Shown here one piece after another: positions 49,682 to 57,507 of a stretch of 64,000 bases of DNA (the first letter of the stretch is position 1; each line of letters opens with the position of its first letter). Source of the DNA: a virus; IMG/VR virus record IMGVR_UViG_3300009130_001466, positions 32,001 through 96,000 of that record. One strand, given 5' to 3'. Below the pieces are notes generated by a model that saw only the letters and a program-made list of their open reading frames with translations, was not told the origin of the DNA and ran no database searches. Made by a program: the position numbers and the translations under genes.

Positions 49682-49730
49682 TTGACATTTTATTTTTTAT
49701 GTACATAGTGTTTGTTATTGATCTTTGATA
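49682..49730 (+). promoter_or_regulatory. tRNA-cluster promoter with boxA-like site
   Basis: TTGACA-16-CATAGT then GATCTTTGATA. Confidence 0.65.
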
Positions 49731-50065: not shown

Positions 50066-50124
50066 TTTTAACACACCCAGTGATCCTCTTCTTCATTGAA
50101 TGATCATAAAGGCTGGGTACATTT

Positions 50125-50321
50125 TACACAGGCGGTGTTGAAAGTAGAAACACTGCGTGGGCCAGCGTCCGAGGAAGGCGGAATATCGACTCGGTTAATT
50201 CTATGGCATTTTCGTGACCGTAACTGCAAAACGCGAAGCGCATAGAAGCATGGTGATCGATTGGTAATCGTAAGCCTAGTTCCACAAAGACCGTAATAGG
50301 AGTAACGACCTATCCTGTGTA
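50125..50321 (+). ncRNA. tRNA-like RNA with ~120-nt insert at the anticodon arm
   Basis: TACACAGG/CCTGTGTA closing stem, GGTGTT/AACACT D-like arm, ATAGG-AGTAACGA-CCTAT T-like arm. Confidence 0.55.
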
Positions 50322-50325
50322 TTAA

Positions 50326-50401
50326 GCACCTTTAGCTCAATCGGTAGAGCAGTTGACTTTTAATCAATTGGTTCTGGGTTCAAGTCCCAGAGGGTGTACC
50401 A
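50326..50401 (+). tRNA. tRNA-Lys (TTT)
   Basis: Canonical, CTTTTAA loop, CCA. Confidence 0.93.
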
Positions 50402-50408
50402 ATTTTAT

Positions 50409-50485
50409 TGGTTCGTGGTGAAGTGGCCTAACACAACTGGTTTTGATCCAGTCATTCGCAGGTTCAAATCCTGCCGAACCTACCA
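50409..50485 (+). tRNA. tRNA-Gln (TTG)
   Basis: ACTGG-TTTTGAT-CCAGT arm, CCA; 1:72 mismatch. Confidence 0.88.
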
Positions 50486-50487
50486 CC

Positions 50488-51070
50488 TTGACCCCTAATG
50501 CCTCTCATCTAAGTAGCCTTGATGATATGATGCACACTATAGGTAAAAAAAGCAGAGAACGTACCGCTCTGTCATAGGTCGTCAAATCGGTATCGTGAGG
50601 AGCAAACACGTTAACGTATCCAGCAGTGCAAGTGATGTAGGCTATTGCTCACTGCTGATCAATTTAATAGTTCTGATACTTTTCAAGAAGTATTGGGTAA
50701 TGATCCACCATTCCAAATAGGGGGAAACTAAAAAAGTAGTGTAGAACGTACTAGGATATGAGGCTTGTGGAATAGGCGTTGATTGAGCGGTATGCTGTTA
50801 GATCGATCATTTGTCATACAAGGTAACTTCTCTACGTCATCTATTGGGTTAACTATTATCAAAGTAGACCTGCCATGCCTCTGAATGACGAAATTCGGAC
50901 CTCAAGTGCCGTGAGAGTCGAAAGACTCCTATATCATTCAAGCATAATTTGGCGAAAAAGTATAAGAATCTGATCAAATCTTATATTGGTGTTTAGATTG
51001 AGTTTGTAATTTCTCTGCGACGGCGGGGGTTGATAATGAGGATAAGGACTGCGTAGCGGTCGACTCCCTC
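50488..51070 (+). ncRNA. Putative large structured ncRNA
   Basis: No ORF in track; nested long-range helices, GAGTC-GAAA-GACTC hairpin; between tRNAs. Confidence 0.6.
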
Positions 51071-51079
51071 ACACTTTTA

Positions 51080-51156
51080 GGGCCTGTAGCTTAATTGGTG
51101 AAAGCAGCGAACTCATAATTCGTTGAGTCTCGGTTCAAGTCCGAGCGGGCCCACCA
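51080..51156 (+). tRNA. tRNA with CAT anticodon (probably Ile2, possibly Met)
   Basis: GGGCCTG acceptor typical of Ile tRNAs, CTCATAA loop, CCA. Confidence 0.88.
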
Positions 51157-51162
51157 TTTTAT

Positions 51163-51234
51163 GTCGCAGTGTTTAAGGTAAACAAGTGGTCTCCAAAACC
51201 GCCAAAGGGGATTCGATTTCTCCCTGCGGCGCCA
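51163..51234 (+). tRNA. tRNA-Trp (CCA)
   Basis: GTGGT-CTCCAAA-ACCGC arm, G73, CCA. Confidence 0.82.
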
Positions 51235-51278
51235 TTTTTAGCTTGACTTTTATTTTTGGGGCAATAGTATACACACTC

Positions 51279-51818
51279 ATGGTAGAAGTTGAAGTTACAA
51301 AATTCATGCTTGATGAAGCAAATCAAAGAAATAAAAAATTCTATGAAATGTTCGGACATACAGGCACTCACAGATCAAACAAACACAGACAAAGAATAAC
51401 TGGTTATCTAGCCGAAGCAGCAATTAGCAACGCTTATGCAGATATAGTTTATGCGGAAGGTCATTCTGTTGATTTTGTTTTAAAAAACTCAGACACAATA
51501 GATTCCAAAGCTCAAGGGTGCAATGGCAAACCAATGTCTAATTATAGTGCCACCTTATATGAAGAGCAAAAAAATAGAGCCACCGATTACTATATTTTCA
51601 GTAGAGTCAAGAACGATTTTAGCGTTGTTTGGATATGCGGCATTATATCCAAAAAAAAGTTTTTCAAAATAGCTGACTTAAAGAAAGCTGGAACCAAAAC
51701 CAATAATTTCACTTATGATCAAAGTAGATATGAAATCGAATATAATCAATTAGCAGATATTGACACTTTTTTGAACTGGCACAAAAAAACAAACGCTCCG
51801 ATAGTTAAAGGGATATAA
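51279..51818 (+). CDS. PD-(D/E)xK-like endonuclease
   Basis: GYLAE..VDF..IDSKAQ motif; own TTGACT promoter; stop codon inside tRNA-Arg. Confidence 0.6.
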   Translation: MVEVEVTKFMLDEANQRNKKFYEMFGHTGTHRSNKHRQRITGYLAEAAISNAYADIVYAEGHSVDFVLKNSDTIDSKAQGCNGKPMSNYSATLYEEQKNRATDYYIFSRVKNDFSVVWICGIISKKKFFKIADLKKAGTKTNNFTYDQSRYEIEYNQLADIDTFLNWHKKTNAPIVKGI

Positions 51819-52219: not shown

Positions 52220-52399
52220 ATGATAAGCAATAAAGAAATCGACAACGTCATTGACCACCTCACGCAAGCGAGCTACAACACTCAGCGCAAGCTGTACCCT
52301 GAGATCAAAGCTAGTCGTTGGGGCAAAGTTTACGGCGAGGGCGTAGCAAAAAAACTTGAAAGTAATTTTCAAAAACACTTGACAATCGCACAAAAATAA
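52220..52399 (+). CDS. Small hypothetical protein (59 aa), paralog of 53924-54106
   Basis: VIDHLT..SY...RKL.PEI..SRWGK.YGE. Confidence 0.7.
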   Translation: MISNKEIDNVIDHLTQASYNTQRKLYPEIKASRWGKVYGEGVAKKLESNFQKHLTIAQK

Positions 52400-52413
52400 C
52401 CATACTATAAATC

Positions 52414-52599
52414 ATGAGTAAAATTGAATCAATAATTGAAGCTGAGTGCTACGATTGGAAGCCTTCCGATATTGAATGGTCTCTGCGAAAAGAAGATGTA
52501 CCAGAAATTGCAAGAAACATTAAGAAGCTTCTCATTGAAGAGATTAAAAACTACGCAGAACATATTGACGATGCGGTTCGATTTATAGACGATTTTTAG
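52414..52599 (+). CDS. Small hypothetical protein
   Basis: Own TTGACA/CATACT promoter. Confidence 0.65.
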   Translation: MSKIESIIEAECYDWKPSDIEWSLRKEDVPEIARNIKKLLIEEIKNYAEHIDDAVRFIDDF

Positions 52600-52638
52600 G
52601 GACTCTAATATCACACAAAAATAACCATACTATATAAC

Positions 52639-52797
52639 ATGAAAACTAAGATTACATACGAAGAATACGACATGATGTGGTTTGATCTCCGCGAAGGAAA
52701 GATCAGCGAAGAAGAATGGAGAGCGTTCTGCGATGAGCTTTTCGAGCAAGAGCTTGAGCGTAACAAGGGCGTAATGATTCGCCTAAAGAATCGTTAA
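52639..52797 (+). CDS. Small hypothetical protein (52 aa)
   Basis: ATG after CATACT; MKTKITYEEYDMMWF.. Confidence 0.65.
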   Translation: MKTKITYEEYDMMWFDLREGKISEEEWRAFCDELFEQELERNKGVMIRLKNR

Positions 52798-52859
52798 AAA
52801 AAATTAAAAAAAGTTTACGATAAGCTTGACATCACCCCTTGAATCCCTATTGTATACAT

Positions 52860-53069
52860 ATGATAACAAATAAAACATACACAGTCACCACAGTCGAATT
52901 CTCTAACACAGGCGAGATGCGCGAGCAAGTGCGCGACTTCCCTAAGTCTCGTGAGGGTCTCGCCGAAGCTTACGCTTTCGCTAATCCTTGCGACGAGTGG
53001 GCGATCTGGTTCGGCGACGAGCTGGTAGACGACAGCTGCTGCACCCCTGCTCACCTAGTGGTAGCGTAA
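52860..53069 (+). CDS. Small hypothetical protein
   Basis: TTGACA-16-TATTGT, ATG 6 nt later. Confidence 0.65.
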   Translation: MITNKTYTVTTVEFSNTGEMREQVRDFPKSREGLAEAYAFANPCDEWAIWFGDELVDDSCCTPAHLVVA

Positions 53070-53081
53070 CACCGAAGCCCC

Positions 53082-53158
53082 TAAGTCGCTGACAGTCAAC
53101 GACTTACGGGGCCGAGGCCGCCCCGCGCGCGTAAGTGCTTGATACTCAACGACTTACG
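53082..53158. repeat. Double-palindrome element copy 1
   Basis: Arm centres 53094/53144. Confidence 0.95.
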
Positions 53159-53237
53159 ACACGAAAAAAACTTTAAAAAACTTAAAAAAACTTTGCGATA
53201 AGCTTGACTTGCCACTTCTTTAACCTATACTGTAAGC

Positions 53238-53417
53238 ATGATTAAATATAACGAATTGCACGACCTCTCTTGCCAATACTGGGATGCTCTTGACCGCCAA
53301 GATTATGACTGGGCTGACTTCATCGACTCATGCCTTGAGCGTGAAGGCGTGGAGCGTCTTCCTCGCGAAGATTGCGAAGAGCCCATCCTTGACCTTTCTC
53401 CTCTCGAAGTAAACTAA
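53238..53417 (+). CDS. Small acidic protein (59 aa)
   Basis: TTGACT-16-TATACT, ATG 6 nt later; D/E rich. Confidence 0.65.
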   Translation: MIKYNELHDLSCQYWDALDRQDYDWADFIDSCLEREGVERLPREDCEEPILDLSPLEVN

Positions 53418-53421
53418 CCAA

Positions 53422-53757
53422 ATGACGATTATGACAAAAGCAATACTAGTAGACCCTTTTCTCCCCGCGATCTCAACTGTTGAGGTTGACGGGTTCGAAG
53501 ATATCCAACGCATGATCGATTGCCGCTGCTTTACTTGTGTGAGGTTTCCCGATGGCAAGCATGTCGCATACATTGACGACGAAGGATTAATCAATGGTAC
53601 GCAAAGAGGCGTTAGGTTTATCGACAAGATTTACCCCGATGCCTTAGCTGGTCGCGTTCTTATCCTTGCCGACGACGGGCAAGGTGGCGACGCTGACTGC
53701 GAGCTGACAGGCGCTGATATCCAAGCGATGATAAAAGGAATCGTGGAATTCGGATAA
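53422..53757 (+). CDS. DUF3846-like protein
   Basis: IQRMID..YIDDEGL..LAGRVLI pattern. Confidence 0.65.
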   Translation: MTIMTKAILVDPFLPAISTVEVDGFEDIQRMIDCRCFTCVRFPDGKHVAYIDDEGLINGTQRGVRFIDKIYPDALAGRVLILADDGQGGDADCELTGADIQAMIKGIVEFG

Positions 53758-53771
53758 AAAAGCTTGACACC

Positions 53772-53850
53772 CGTAAGTTGCTGATTATCAACGACTTACG
53801 GGCCCAGGGCCGCCCGCGCCGCGCAAGTGCTTGATAACCAAGGACTTGCG
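53772..53850. repeat. Double-palindrome element copy 2
   Basis: Arm centres 53786/53836. Confidence 0.95.
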
Positions 53851-53923
53851 TAATCTAAAATAAAAAACAAAAAAGTTTCCAAAACGCTTGACAACCACAC
53901 AAAATTTCCTATTCTATAAGATA

Positions 53924-54106
53924 ATGAAAGACACAAACAAATTAATCACCGAAGTAATCGACCACCTAACTTTTTCTAGCTATGCTCACAACCGCAAGCT
54001 AAATCCCGAAATCTCACCTTCTCGTTGGGGCAAGATCTACGGAGAAAAAGAAGTTGTTTTAATGGAAAAAACTTTCCAAAATACCTTGACAACCGCAAAA
54101 AAATAA
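53924..54106 (+). CDS. Small hypothetical protein, paralog of 52220-52399
   Basis: Shared SRWGK.YGE motif; own promoter. Confidence 0.7.
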   Translation: MKDTNKLITEVIDHLTFSSYAHNRKLNPEISPSRWGKIYGEKEVVLMEKTFQNTLTTAKK

Positions 54107-54120
54107 TCATACTGTATAAC

Positions 54121-54279
54121 ATGAACATTAGAAAAGAAATTAAAGTCTCATCAATTCTAACCGACGAAGTATTGCGTCAACAAAAAGAGTTAATCTCTAA
54201 AGGCTTTCAGCACGTCAATAACATTAAAAATGGTCGTCTTTCGGATGGTTACACAATGATTTTTGTTAAACAAGGGTAA
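54121..54279 (+). CDS. Small hypothetical protein
   Basis: TTGACA-16-CATACT, ATG 7 nt later. Confidence 0.6.
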   Translation: MNIRKEIKVSSILTDEVLRQQKELISKGFQHVNNIKNGRLSDGYTMIFVKQG

Positions 54280-54283
54280 TAAT

Positions 54284-54433
54284 ATGAAAATTTGGGAACT
54301 TTTAACTCTGGTGCTTTTTGGACTCATTCTTGGGTTGGCAATGTTTGTCGGGCTTAAGCTCGACGACAAAGCTCAACAAACGAAAGAAGCGACATGGGAA
54401 CGCTTCGAGGAAATCGACAACGCAATCAAATAA
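54284..54433 (+). CDS. Small membrane protein (49 aa)
   Basis: N-terminal hydrophobic helix. Confidence 0.55.
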   Translation: MKIWELLTLVLFGLILGLAMFVGLKLDDKAQQTKEATWERFEEIDNAIK

Positions 54434-54434
54434 A

Positions 54435-54572
54435 ATGAAAATAACTATTGACAAAACAACTGCAATTTGCTTGACAGTCGCGGCTTGCACTTACTTCATC
54501 GCAAATAAAATTAGCTGGTTTCAAAAAATGTTTGACACTGTCTCAGGGGTTGCGATAAACTCAATCATGTAA
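54435..54572 (+). CDS. Small hypothetical protein (45 aa)
   Basis: Stop TAA lies inside repeat copy 3. Confidence 0.5.
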   Translation: MKITIDKTTAICLTVAACTYFIANKISWFQKMFDTVSGVAINSIM

Positions 54573-54646
54573 GTGCTTGAATATCAACGACTTACGGGGC
54601 CAGGGCCGCCCGCGCCGCGCAAACCCTTGATAAACAACGACTTACG
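54569..54646. repeat. Double-palindrome element copy 3
   Basis: Arm centres 54582/54632. Confidence 0.95.
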
Positions 54647-54705
54647 CAACTAAAAAAAAGAAAAAGACTCTTGACAACCGCACAAAAATAACCATCATAC
54701 AAACT

Positions 54706-55038
54706 ATGAAACCACTAAGCAAAACACTGACAGAACTAGGGATTGCATTTAGCTTTCCTATTGAGATTAAAGACGCTAATGGCAAGCCGACTTACCGAGA
54801 GTACAGCGATGGCTACTGGTATAAGTTTGAGTATGATGACAATAATAAAATAACTTACTGCAAGAATAGTCATAACTACTCGTATAGGTGTCAGTATGAT
54901 GACAATGGCAACAGGAATTACTTCGAGGACAGCAATGGTCTCCGAGAAGGTGCGCCACGTCCAGCCAAATCAACTAATACCTGCGAAGGCAAGGTTGTCG
55001 AAGTGGACGGGATCAAATATAAATTAACAGCACTATGA
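54706..55038 (+). CDS. YD-like repeat protein
   Basis: EYDDNNK / QYDDNGN repeats; VVEVDGIKYKL tail. Confidence 0.7.
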   Translation: MKPLSKTLTELGIAFSFPIEIKDANGKPTYREYSDGYWYKFEYDDNNKITYCKNSHNYSYRCQYDDNGNRNYFEDSNGLREGAPRPAKSTNTCEGKVVEVDGIKYKLTAL

Positions 55039-55466
55039 AAAAATTAATCTTACTAACATTCGCCATCTGCGCATCAATAGCACAAGGCGCGACATTAACT
55101 GATTTAATTGTTGCTTTAGAAAAAGTGGAAAGCAATTGCAATCCTTCCGCTTATAACGAAAGCGAAAAAGCGTTAGGCTCTCTTCAGATTAGACCTATCA
55201 TGTTGGCTGATTATAATCGCATCTATGGCACGAATATAAAGCACAAGCAAATGTCAAACCGCTTGACTTCCCATAATATCGCAATCGGAATCTTTCGTCA
55301 CTATGAAAAGTATATCAAACGTAATGGCGAAAAGTTAAATGCAAAACATCTTGCCTTCGTTTGGAATGGAGGAGGATCAGCTTGGAAACGGGTTGCAAAT
55401 CCGAAAAGCGACAAAAAGCAAAAAAATCTAGAAATTTACTGGACAAAGGTCTCAAAGCATCTGTAA
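55035..55466 (+). CDS. Secreted lysozyme-like / transglycosylase-fold protein
   Basis: Signal peptide; LEKVES..P.A..ALGSLQI; WNGG; YWTKV. Confidence 0.75.
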   Translation: MKKLILLTFAICASIAQGATLTDLIVALEKVESNCNPSAYNESEKALGSLQIRPIMLADYNRIYGTNIKHKQMSNRLTSHNIAIGIFRHYEKYIKRNGEKLNAKHLAFVWNGGGSAWKRVANPKSDKKQKNLEIYWTKVSKHL

Positions 55467-55490
55467 GTTACTGGTATTCAACGACTTACG
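55463..55490. repeat. Single-arm element copy 4
   Basis: GTAAGTTACTGGTATTCAACGACTTACG. Confidence 0.9.
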
Positions 55491-55578
55491 CAACAAAAAA
55501 ACTTTAATCTTTTTTCAAAATCGCTTGACAGCCTAACCTTTTTTCTTATTCTTTTTTAAGCATTAACAACATCACTTT

Positions 55579-55773
55579 ATGATTGATAAACGAACAGAAA
55601 AACAAATCAAGAGGCTCTTCTCGGTGGTAGTAGACGACTCACTCATGGACGCTGACTTTGAATATGTCCAAGCAGCTATTGCTTGCGTTCGTAAAGAGTG
55701 TGATCAAGTTGAAGAATACATGAAGGAGATGGATAGACTTGCTGATGAAGATTCTATATCTAACACAATATGA
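55579..55773 (+). CDS. Small hypothetical protein
   Basis: Promoter upstream. Confidence 0.6.
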   Translation: MIDKRTEKQIKRLFSVVVDDSLMDADFEYVQAAIACVRKECDQVEEYMKEMDRLADEDSISNTI

Positions 55774-55862
55774 GACAATTCACCAACGGCGACACGGGCG
55801 AGGTCAAGACTATAGCTGAGGTCTTTGCCCTAATCCGCGAAGAGAGAGAAGGAGAGCCGTAA
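55770..55862 (+). CDS. 30-aa ORF (possibly truncated by the repeat)
   Basis: ATGA overlap with previous gene; stop inside repeat copy 5. Confidence 0.4.
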   Translation: MRQFTNGDTGEVKTIAEVFALIREEREGEP

Positions 55863-55936
55863 GTCTCTGACAGTCAACGACTTACGGGCCCAGGGCCGCG
55901 CCCGCCGCGCAAGTGCTTGATATACAACGACTTACG
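55858..55936. repeat. Double-palindrome element copy 5
   Basis: Arm centres 55872/55922. Confidence 0.95.
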
Positions 55937-56005
55937 CAACAAAAAAACTTTAATCTTTTTTCAAAATCGCTTGACAACCTCACCAAAATTCTTATTGTTT
56001 TAATT

Positions 56006-56188
56006 ATGACTACTACTGATTCCTTCTCTGATTCTTCTTTTGACCCTTGGGCTGACTTGTCCGAGGCCGAGTTCGCTGAGTTCGAAGCCGATATGTTGCG
56101 CGAGCAACAGGAGCGTGAAAGCGCCGAGGCGATGGCTCACGAAGCTCAGCTTGAGCGCGAGCTTATGGAAAGAGCCGACTTCCGCTAA
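56006..56188 (+). CDS. Small acidic helical protein
   Basis: ATG after TTGACA..TATTGT; E/D rich. Confidence 0.65.
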   Translation: MTTTDSFSDSSFDPWADLSEAEFAEFEADMLREQQERESAEAMAHEAQLERELMERADFR

Positions 56189-56195
56189 GGGGTTG

Positions 56196-56273
56196 CGCAA
56201 GCCCTTGACAGTCAACGACTTACGGGGCCGAGGCCGCCCCGCGCGCGTAAGTCCTTGATACTCAGCAACTTAC
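56196..56273. repeat. Double-palindrome element copy 6
   Basis: Arm centres 56210/56260. Confidence 0.95.
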
Positions 56274-56402
56274 AGAGGTTCCCGAAATTCATTTCGGGAA
56301 CATACATAACTGCTTGATCATTAGATATATACGCTATTTGTCTTGTATTTGCGTTCGATTTGCGTTCGATTTGATTTGGCGCTATTTTTTTTCAAAAAAG
56401 GG

Positions 56403-56454
56403 TTGACTAATGCCCAAAACAATACATAATGTAAAACATAATCGTTCTTTAACA
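56403..56454 (+). promoter_or_regulatory. Promoter plus boxA-like antitermination site
   Basis: TTGACT-16-CATAAT; CGTTCTTTAACA (cf. boxA TGCTCTTTAACA). Confidence 0.7.
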
Positions 56455-56465
56455 TTTTACAATTT

Positions 56466-56869
56466 AGACAAGCGAGTCCTAGAAGCTGGTAGATGAAATT
56501 GCTTTAGTAGGCTACCAAGGTTAAGCAAATCGTTTGTCTCTTATCTAACTCGAAGAAAGCCAGGTAAACAGCCGAGCATGGGGATCTGCTGGCAATGCGT
56601 CGAGGACAGCGTGGGGGTGCGTTGATAAGATTGATTAGTTAAACACCCTCAAGATTTAACCTCGCTTGGATGACGTCTGCCTTAGAAGGGCATCCCCAAG
56701 CCAACTGGATTCGCAAATAGCGAAGAGGGAGTTGCCACTGCTCTGAGGTTTTAACATTTTAAGCGGAGAATTTGAACGCTCGACCTAAACGCCTAAAGGG
56801 TTCACCCAAGCGGAAATGAGTCGAAAGACCGAGAGCGCCAACCAATTGAAACAGGTTATATCCGCACCA
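56466..56869 (+). ncRNA. Putative multi-domain structured ncRNA unit ending in ACCA
   Basis: No ORF in track; several closed helices; GCGGA/TCCGC-ACCA terminal module. Confidence 0.55.
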
Positions 56870-56954
56870 ATCTAAAAAAACTATTGACAAAGCTCAACTT
56901 TTGTGATTTAATATAATCTTAACAATCGAAAATCCAAAACGGAGAAAAGAAAAC

Positions 56955-57206
56955 ATGAAAAACCTAAAACTAAATCCAATCCAAAAAACTCGCCTTGCTA
57001 TTCGTCGCGCTTTCGCTAAGAATAATATGGCTCAAATCACCTACAAGAAAAAGTCTGATGAGACTGTTGGCTCTTATGTCATTGACATGAATTTCATTGA
57101 AGACTTGGGCGATATGTTCAACACCTATTCTTACGCCACTGGCGCGAAGCACAGCGGCATCCGCTCCTTCTATAAAAACCGAATCGAAAAAATTAAACTT
57201 GTGTAG
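56955..57206 (+). CDS. WYL-like (Sm/SH3-fold) small protein
   Basis: ITYKKK..GIRSFYKNRIEKIKL resembles the WYL RxFxxxRI motif. Confidence 0.55.
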   Translation: MKNLKLNPIQKTRLAIRRAFAKNNMAQITYKKKSDETVGSYVIDMNFIEDLGDMFNTYSYATGAKHSGIRSFYKNRIEKIKLV

Positions 57207-57217
57207 CGTGATTGGTT

Positions 57218-57337
57218 AACGTGTGTGTGCCGCCTCGTCTTGTGGTTAGGGCGAGGCGGCTTAAATTTCTTTTGTTGTAGTCGTGTGCAACGTGTGTGTG
57301 CCGTCTTACCTTTTGTGTATGGGGTAAGGCGGCTTTT
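57218..57337 (+). terminator. Tandem duplicated TG-tract + hairpin
   Basis: Two AACGTGTGTGTGCCG...GGCGGCTT units. Confidence 0.6.
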
Positions 57338-57359
57338 CGCTATATGGATCAAGAGTTCT

Positions 57360-57437
57360 GTAAGTCCTTGATGGTCAACGATTTACGCGGCGGGGGCCAG
57401 CGCAGACCCGCAAGTGCTTGATAATCAACAACTTACG
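57360..57437. repeat. Double-palindrome element copy 7
   Basis: Arm centres 57373/57423. Confidence 0.95.
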
Positions 57438-57507
57438 AATTCAAATAAATTTAAATAAATTTTTAAAAAGGGTTGACTCGTCGAATTAAATAATACATTA
57501 TACTAAT

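Follow-up and report, generated by a model that had tools for sequence, protein, structure and literature searches.

A promoter-driven, boxA-led phage cassette of exchangeable, predicted non-coding RNA modules

Much less is known of the non-coding RNAs of phages than of their proteins, and a stretch of viral DNA in which a promoter and a boxA word are followed by ~500 nt free of open reading frames (ORFs) raises the question of what such a unit produces and whether its product could be RNA. The stretch lies in a 64,000-nt window (bases 32001–96000 of a 112.8-kb IMG/VR virus record), the genes of which include those for a tape-measure protein, a large terminase and a ribonucleotide reductase as well as eight or nine tRNA genes. 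The terminase is only ~25–29% identical to the terminase of Bacillus phages in a cultured-phage collection, and the phage therefore has no cultured relative; the same collection gave no DNA match to the cassette region. Metagenome sources include a Tara Oceans scaffold. A first-pass annotation had described the stretch as a non-coding cassette of several structured RNA domains, carried as cargo between copies of a repeat element.

Here, we describe the parts of this stretch (Table 1) and their counterparts on other phage contigs, which are referred to by handles such as L079. Judged from its sequence, the cassette is a promoter-driven, boxA-led, predicted non-coding unit composed of exchangeable modules. 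We consider it fairly probable that the stretch is transcribed early, as a unit that yields RNA rather than protein, and that these RNAs would most likely act in trans. In this reading it is predicted that the cassette is transcribed, that it depends on Nus factors, that its RNA is processed at the linkers and domain 4, and that the products work in trans.

Table 1. Positions of the cassette, its predicted RNA domains and the flanking elements in the window.
Feature	Position	Strand	Details
Double-palindrome repeat element, left boundary of slot	56196–56279	.	Family D2
Sigma-70-type promoter of the RNA cassette	56403–56430	+	TTGACT −35 at 56403–56408, 16-nt spacer, CATAAT −10 at 56425–56430
boxA word	56444–56454	+	Exact match to GYTCTTTAANA
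AU-rich linker, first copy of 12-nt direct repeat	56448–56459	+	
Domain 1 (putative)	56466–56540	+	10-bp closing stem (56466–56475/56530–56539) with two interleaved 6-bp helices (56487–56492/56512–56517 and 56499–56504/56523–56528)
Domain 2 (putative)	56539–56630	+	7-bp closing stem (56539–56545/56624–56630) with inner helices
Domain 3, conserved structured RNA	56658–56750	+	Covariation; P1 56658–56663/56745–56750; P2 56664–56669/56696–56701
Domain 3 hairpins	56675–56695 (variable); 56710–56714/56720–56724 (P3)	+	
Domain 3 alternative 3′ helices	56702–56706/56730–56734 or 56728–56732/56740–56744	+	
AU-rich linker, second copy of 12-nt direct repeat	56750–56761	+	
Domain 4	56763–56869	+	Closing helix 56763–56767/56861–56865, then ACCA 56866–56869; branched central arm; T-arm-like hairpin
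Own promoter of the 83-aa gene	56884–56912	+	−35 at 56884–56889, 17 nt, extended −10 ending at 56912; assigned by eye
Gene for 83-aa stand-alone WYL-like protein	56955–57206	+	
Two intrinsic-terminator-like hairpins ending the unit	57229–57333	+	
Double-palindrome repeat element, right boundary of slot	57359–57442	.	Family D2

In keeping with the first-pass annotation, which saw no ORF there, none longer than 44 codons, counted from stop to stop, occurs in any frame of either strand across 56440–56890, and no protein remnants were found in any frame. Its GC content lies above that of the AT-rich intergenic flanks. Taken as a whole, the region folds no better than shuffled sequences (minimum free energy (MFE) z = 0.03 and −0.42 for the two strands). 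Searches with Rfam returned only tRNAs at gathering score across the whole window, nothing but a terminator-like match (57158–57269) when 56200–57400 was searched at E up to 10, and nothing at the modules, domain 3 included, of eight homologous loci at E up to 1. ARAGORN called no tRNA or tmRNA in 56400–56900 at default or lowered thresholds and gave only noise at its loosest setting, and a search of the window for tmRNA yielded neither an RF00023 match nor an ARAGORN tmRNA call.

The promoter and the boxA-like word picked out by the first-pass annotation are both present and recur together as the leader of eight cassettes on seven phage contigs (the window, L172, L160, L126, L021, L121, and L079 twice). 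Both promoter hexamers are kept in all eight leaders, the boxA word matches GYTCTTTAANA exactly in the window and in the seven others, and the 17 nt around it are invariant in 8/8; the promoter spacers of L121 and of the second L079 copy are unrelated. In the window, the word begins about 10–13 nt past the −10 hexamer and ~7 nt past the predicted transcription start. GYTCTTTAANA is the functional gamma-proteobacterial boxA consensus derived by Baniulyte et al. (PMC5725501), and applying it here is an assumption, as it may not be the consensus of the host. The window contains two matches to it where 0.95 are expected, which by count alone is not significant, and the match in the cassette is the only promoter-proximal one in the 112.8-kb genome. 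Leader scans in IMG/VR recovered L021 and L079 as real homologues and L200 as a chance match, and E. coli genomes gave no match to the leader.

What this leader precedes varies from phage to phage. In L079, boxA leads domain 4 alone and, in addition, another module, and in L021 and L121 it leads domain 3 alone. Because the boxA-led cassettes of L079 are without domain 3, boxA is best understood to lead RNA cassettes in general and not to form one half of a site completed by domain 3. No lambda-type nut site was recognised: inspection by eye revealed no short boxB-like hairpin after boxA, and no N-like gene was recognised among the neighbouring genes. The second promoter-plus-boxA cassette of L079 (L079:1180–1400) lies directly behind the first, and its module has a canonical-looking T arm and is not called as a tRNA. 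The first-pass annotation had also placed a similar site ahead of the tRNA operon, a likeness that does not extend to the consensus, as that boxA-like word (49720–49730) differs from it at 2/11 positions. It follows the tRNA operon promoter within 49682–49730, and a similar variant stands ahead of domain 3 in L165.

The closing stem that had been assigned to domain 3 is present, and it belongs to a conserved, covarying structured RNA, for which we collected eight distinct full-length variants and two truncated ones. Homologues were fished with the repeat element, which led to L021, and with exact words taken from both L021 and the window, which led to the rest, and nhmmer separated real from chance matches; exact-word scans for domain 3 in IMG/VR gave mostly chance matches, with only L021 real. 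In the eight-sequence alignment, the structure comprises 27 pairs, 96.8% of the pair cells are standard pairs, and eight pairs have both sides changed in a compensatory manner. None of 500 shuffles reached the observed percentage paired, number of both-sided changes or covariation score, 24/500 reached the observed count of further pair types, and controls with slid partners were only 24–50% paired. Among the variants, P2 shows a G-C to A-U switch and two pairs of the P3 hairpin switch. In most variants the P3 loop is 3–11 nt long; in L084 and L121 it holds an extra nested hairpin. In L165, L126 and L160, the P2 arm has had its distal hairpin replaced outright.

Folded alone, 6/7 domain 3 variants adopt the same layout; none is more stable than its shuffles, and a 91-nt stretch covering most of the domain has a folding z of −1.25. 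The two alternative 3′ helices cannot be told apart by these data because both are invariant, and the invariance of the 3′ segment is partly an ascertainment artefact, since that exact 17-mer served as fishing bait. A covariance model of domain 3 found no further diverged copies in 64 sources, and its pattern had no match in 185,579 bacterial species genomes. Given the covariation, we conclude that domain 3 represents a genuine RNA family that Rfam lacks.

Domain 4 carries the mark of tRNA-like elements, a terminal helix (5 bp, or 7 bp if one mismatch is allowed) followed by NCCA, together with a hairpin of 4 bp that has a loop similar to a T loop; its folding energy gives z = −0.74. As a tRNA or tmRNA it was rejected, with no ARAGORN call and no Rfam tRNA or tmRNA match. 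The copy in L172 is identical, and the copy in L079, which lies directly behind the leader, has two changes in the T-arm-like hairpin that we read as compatible with the stem. These three known copies are near-identical and thus too alike to test the fold by covariation, and searching 64 sources with a covariance model of domain 4 brought up no additional diverged copies.

The AU-rich linker word, present in the window as a direct repeat, or a near copy of it precedes each module in L172, L160, L126, L021, L079 and L145. The L079 cassette corresponds to that of the window minus domains 1–3, with both linker copies kept, and L172 has an orphan −35 box fused to its linker ahead of domain 3. From the linker repeats, the layout of L079 and the fusion in L172, it follows that modules are swapped at short AU-rich words.

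Domains 1 and 2 are confined to the window. Where they sit, L172, L160 and L126 have inserts of a different, unrelated kind, and alignment of domains 1–2 with these inserts revealed no homology. No homologue of 56461–56650 appeared in any collection searched, and word scans with either domain gave no match or chance matches in coding DNA. The first-pass annotation had read domain 1 as a pseudoknot closed by a stem; the stem and the interleaved helices are there, but neither homologues nor folding energies back the pseudoknot. Domain 1 is the only domain to reach a folding energy of z = −2.2. In post hoc Monte Carlo tests, a stem of at least 10 bp arose in 72% of shuffles, and the complete layout of a stem with two interleaved 6-bp helices arose in 6/300 (2%). 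The closing stem claimed for domain 2 is likewise present, but its folding energy shows no signal against shuffles (z = −0.01), and it too is without a homologue. Covariation, which had been put forward as a check on the pairings, bears out domain 3 through the eight pairs changed on both sides but finds no homologue to draw on for domains 1–2. We regard domains 1–2 as an insertion specific to this phage, comprising putative and unproven domains.

The place that the cassette occupies is an early-type array of small cassettes, divided by an 84-nt double-palindrome element (family D2, 10 copies). The neighbouring 83-aa protein is encoded on six IMG/VR contigs, and the slot between the repeat element and its gene, 650 nt long, holds ordinary small protein genes in 4/6 of them (L002–L005); from position 56911 on, the DNA of one of these four relatives is 95% identical to that of the window. 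L172 has the cassette inserted between a slot protein gene and the WYL-like gene. Since relatives have protein genes in the same slot, the ORF-free stretch is exchangeable cargo and not a fixed feature of the lineage, in agreement with the first-pass view of cargo between repeat copies. A search of the phage's own genome found no second copy of the cassette.

Upstream of the cassette promoter lie a perfect palindrome with 10-bp arms (56281–56302) and a tandemly repeated 11-nt word (56349–56378). Both are present in L079, the tandem repeat is also found in L003, and the two may be regulator-binding sites. Other early promoters (family D6, 52371–56441) are followed by an ATG ~7 nt past the −10 hexamer, which points to leaderless genes; the promoter of the RNA cassette has ATA where these put ATG.

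The tRNA operon of the window contains ORF-free stretches as well (50066–50326, 50484–51080 and 51231–51795), which are conserved at 87–100% in L079, in L012 and in the L165 lineage and match no Rfam family; they are candidates for further stable RNAs. In the L165 lineage, domain 3 and a further module, module E, sit at the head of a 15-tRNA operon. The two copies of module E (92 nt; L172:4365–4456 and L165:3761–3852) are 100% identical and their flanks are unrelated, one being an early cassette and the other the tRNA operon, an identity that points to recent transfer or strong constraint. Relatives also carry a separate RNA of ~70 nt with its own promoter and T-run (L160:1829–1896, L079:4482–4551 and L145:4238–4307). 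It scores 54–56 bits, above the Rfam tmRNA gathering score, and consists of the tRNA-like domain only, without the tag-coding part; a regular-expression search did not find it in this genome.

Downstream of the cassette, the 83-aa protein had been labelled WYL-like. Its match to Pfam WYL (PF13280) covers the full model at 13.4 bits, under the cut-off of 21.8 (E = 0.078), and the top PDB matches of its AlphaFold2 model (pLDDT 77) are the WYL proteins CapW, BrxR, PafBC and DriD, with E from 1.2e-3. The structural matches speak for the label and the Pfam score falls short of it, and we consider the predicted assignment fair, but weak. The protein is a stand-alone WYL-like domain in the early region of a phage. 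In CapW and BrxR, the WYL domain senses signals that turn on defence systems, and by analogy a free WYL-like copy could, as a speculation, act as a sponge.

How might such a unit work? We propose that the host-type promoter would start a transcript at about 56437, the first 20 nt of which would bear the perfect boxA. NusB/NusE would bind this boxA and, together with NusA, NusG and SuhB, would convert RNA polymerase to a Rho-resistant form with better co-transcriptional folding, allowing ~0.5 kb of untranslated structured RNA to be made in full. This proposal draws on an analogy: in long untranslated leaders, boxA and the Nus factors keep Rho from terminating transcription, and they also help rRNA to fold (PMC4807359). 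Rho resistance of this kind is established for rRNA operons and long untranslated reporter leaders, and an untranslated transcript of 0.5 kb would need such protection. The transcript would be a chain of separately closed modules joined by the AU-rich linker word, and the comparison of phages shows that modules are gained, lost and swapped at these linkers. Probably the linkers double as endonuclease sites at which the modules are released, and domain 4, with its acceptor-like end and ACCA, is a possible RNase P substrate. The action of the RNAs, once they are released, would most probably be in trans and early in infection, as with the stable RNAs found beside phage tRNA genes.

A different, cis-acting role would make boxA and domain 3 a nut-like or put-like antitermination or regulatory site for downstream early genes, including the WYL-like gene. 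We judge this unlikely, although the arrangement of several relatives would suit it. Domain 3 starts 2–3 nt past boxA in L021 and L121 and 2 nt past the two-mismatch boxA-like word in L165, and it forms the 5′ UTR of an ORF without its own promoter in L021, L126 and L160. In the window, however, boxA and domain 3 are ~200 nt apart, boxA heads cassettes without domain 3 in L079, and L084 has domain 3 behind an ORF and without boxA. There is no terminator between the cassette and the 83-aa gene and there are two after it, which would suit a cis role, but the gene has its own promoter, which is kept in L002–L005, relatives without the cassette. The presence of WYL or WYL_2 genes downstream of domain 3 in the window, L021, L126 and L121 also fits a leader, and this linkage may be plain synteny.

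The layout of the stretch could also be taken as debris: much of it, above all domains 1–2, would be non-functional filler or a gene decayed in the course of cassette recombination, and the pairings would be due to chance. This strikes us as quite improbable, given that the leader, domain 3 and domain 4 are each conserved as a unit, that the stretch contains no protein remnants and exceeds its flanks in GC, and that the combined domain 1 layout is reached by so few shuffles. The points that it does account for are the MFE z-scores near 0, the ease with which shuffles form a long stem, the failure to find homologues of 56461–56650 in the collections searched, and the orphan promoter pieces at module joints in L172, which look like sloppy recombination. 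Translated short peptides or self-cleaving ribozymes, the latter suggested by the first-pass annotation, are hardly credible as products of the stretch. ORFs of 25–33 codons do exist, but they are without a Shine-Dalgarno sequence, and a coding reading of domain 3 was rejected because its frames are not conserved: a stop interrupts them in L165, and a 4-nt gap shifts them in L160. Ribozymes were ruled against by the Rfam covariance-model search that the annotation itself had called for, which found no family match at E up to 10 in the region or at E up to 1 in the eight homologous loci.

The reading that we prefer is thus an early unit whose RNA products would act in trans, and it carries a wider meaning. 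That protein-free cassettes have, as their standard leader, a boxA exactly of the host rRNA type suggests that phages borrow the Nus machinery for their own structured RNAs. RNA modules are traded between phages like genes, in the same slots as protein cassettes and also in tRNA operons, and domain 3 provides a concrete RNA family with covariation support. A more specific idea, to which we give little credence, is that the tRNA-like or folded RNA products of boxA-led cassettes, as interchangeable early accessory genes, decoy host factors such as tRNA-targeting or RNA-sensing defence nucleases, RNase P, CCA-end enzymes or Nus factors. If true, this would give phages an RNA-based branch of counter-defence or host takeover.

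The cassette shares features with several known systems. Like the leader of a bacterial rRNA operon, it has a strong host-type promoter and an exact boxA a few bases into a predicted untranslated structured transcript; in contrast to such leaders, it has no identified boxB or boxC, its cargo is not rRNA, and it is a phage-borne, shuffled cassette. The nut RNAs of lambda and the put RNAs of HK022 are likewise phage early leaders, and in the simplest relatives of our cassette boxA is similarly followed by a conserved folded RNA. However, domain 3 is a multi-helix junction of 90–110 nt as opposed to a 15-nt boxB hairpin or a two-hairpin put element, no N-like protein is identified here, and boxA also heads cassettes without domain 3. 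The closing helix of domain 4 followed by ACCA and its T-arm-like hairpin recall tRNAs and the tRNA-like domain of tmRNA, as which the separate 70-nt RNA of the relatives scores, whereas neither domain 3 nor domain 4 receives an ARAGORN or Rfam call as tRNA or tmRNA. GOLLD and ROOL are also phage-borne structured RNAs of unknown function that often lie beside tRNA genes; the modules described here differ in having no Rfam match, in their small size (75–110 nt) and in being independently exchangeable. Finally, the tRNA cluster of phage T4 encodes species 1 and species 2, small stable RNAs of unknown function that are co-located with phage tRNA genes, much as one lineage here has domain 3 and module E within an operon of 15 tRNAs. 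The likeness lies in the setting rather than in any shown sequence relation, and unlike the T4 species the RNAs described here also occur as free-standing early cassettes with a promoter and a boxA of their own.
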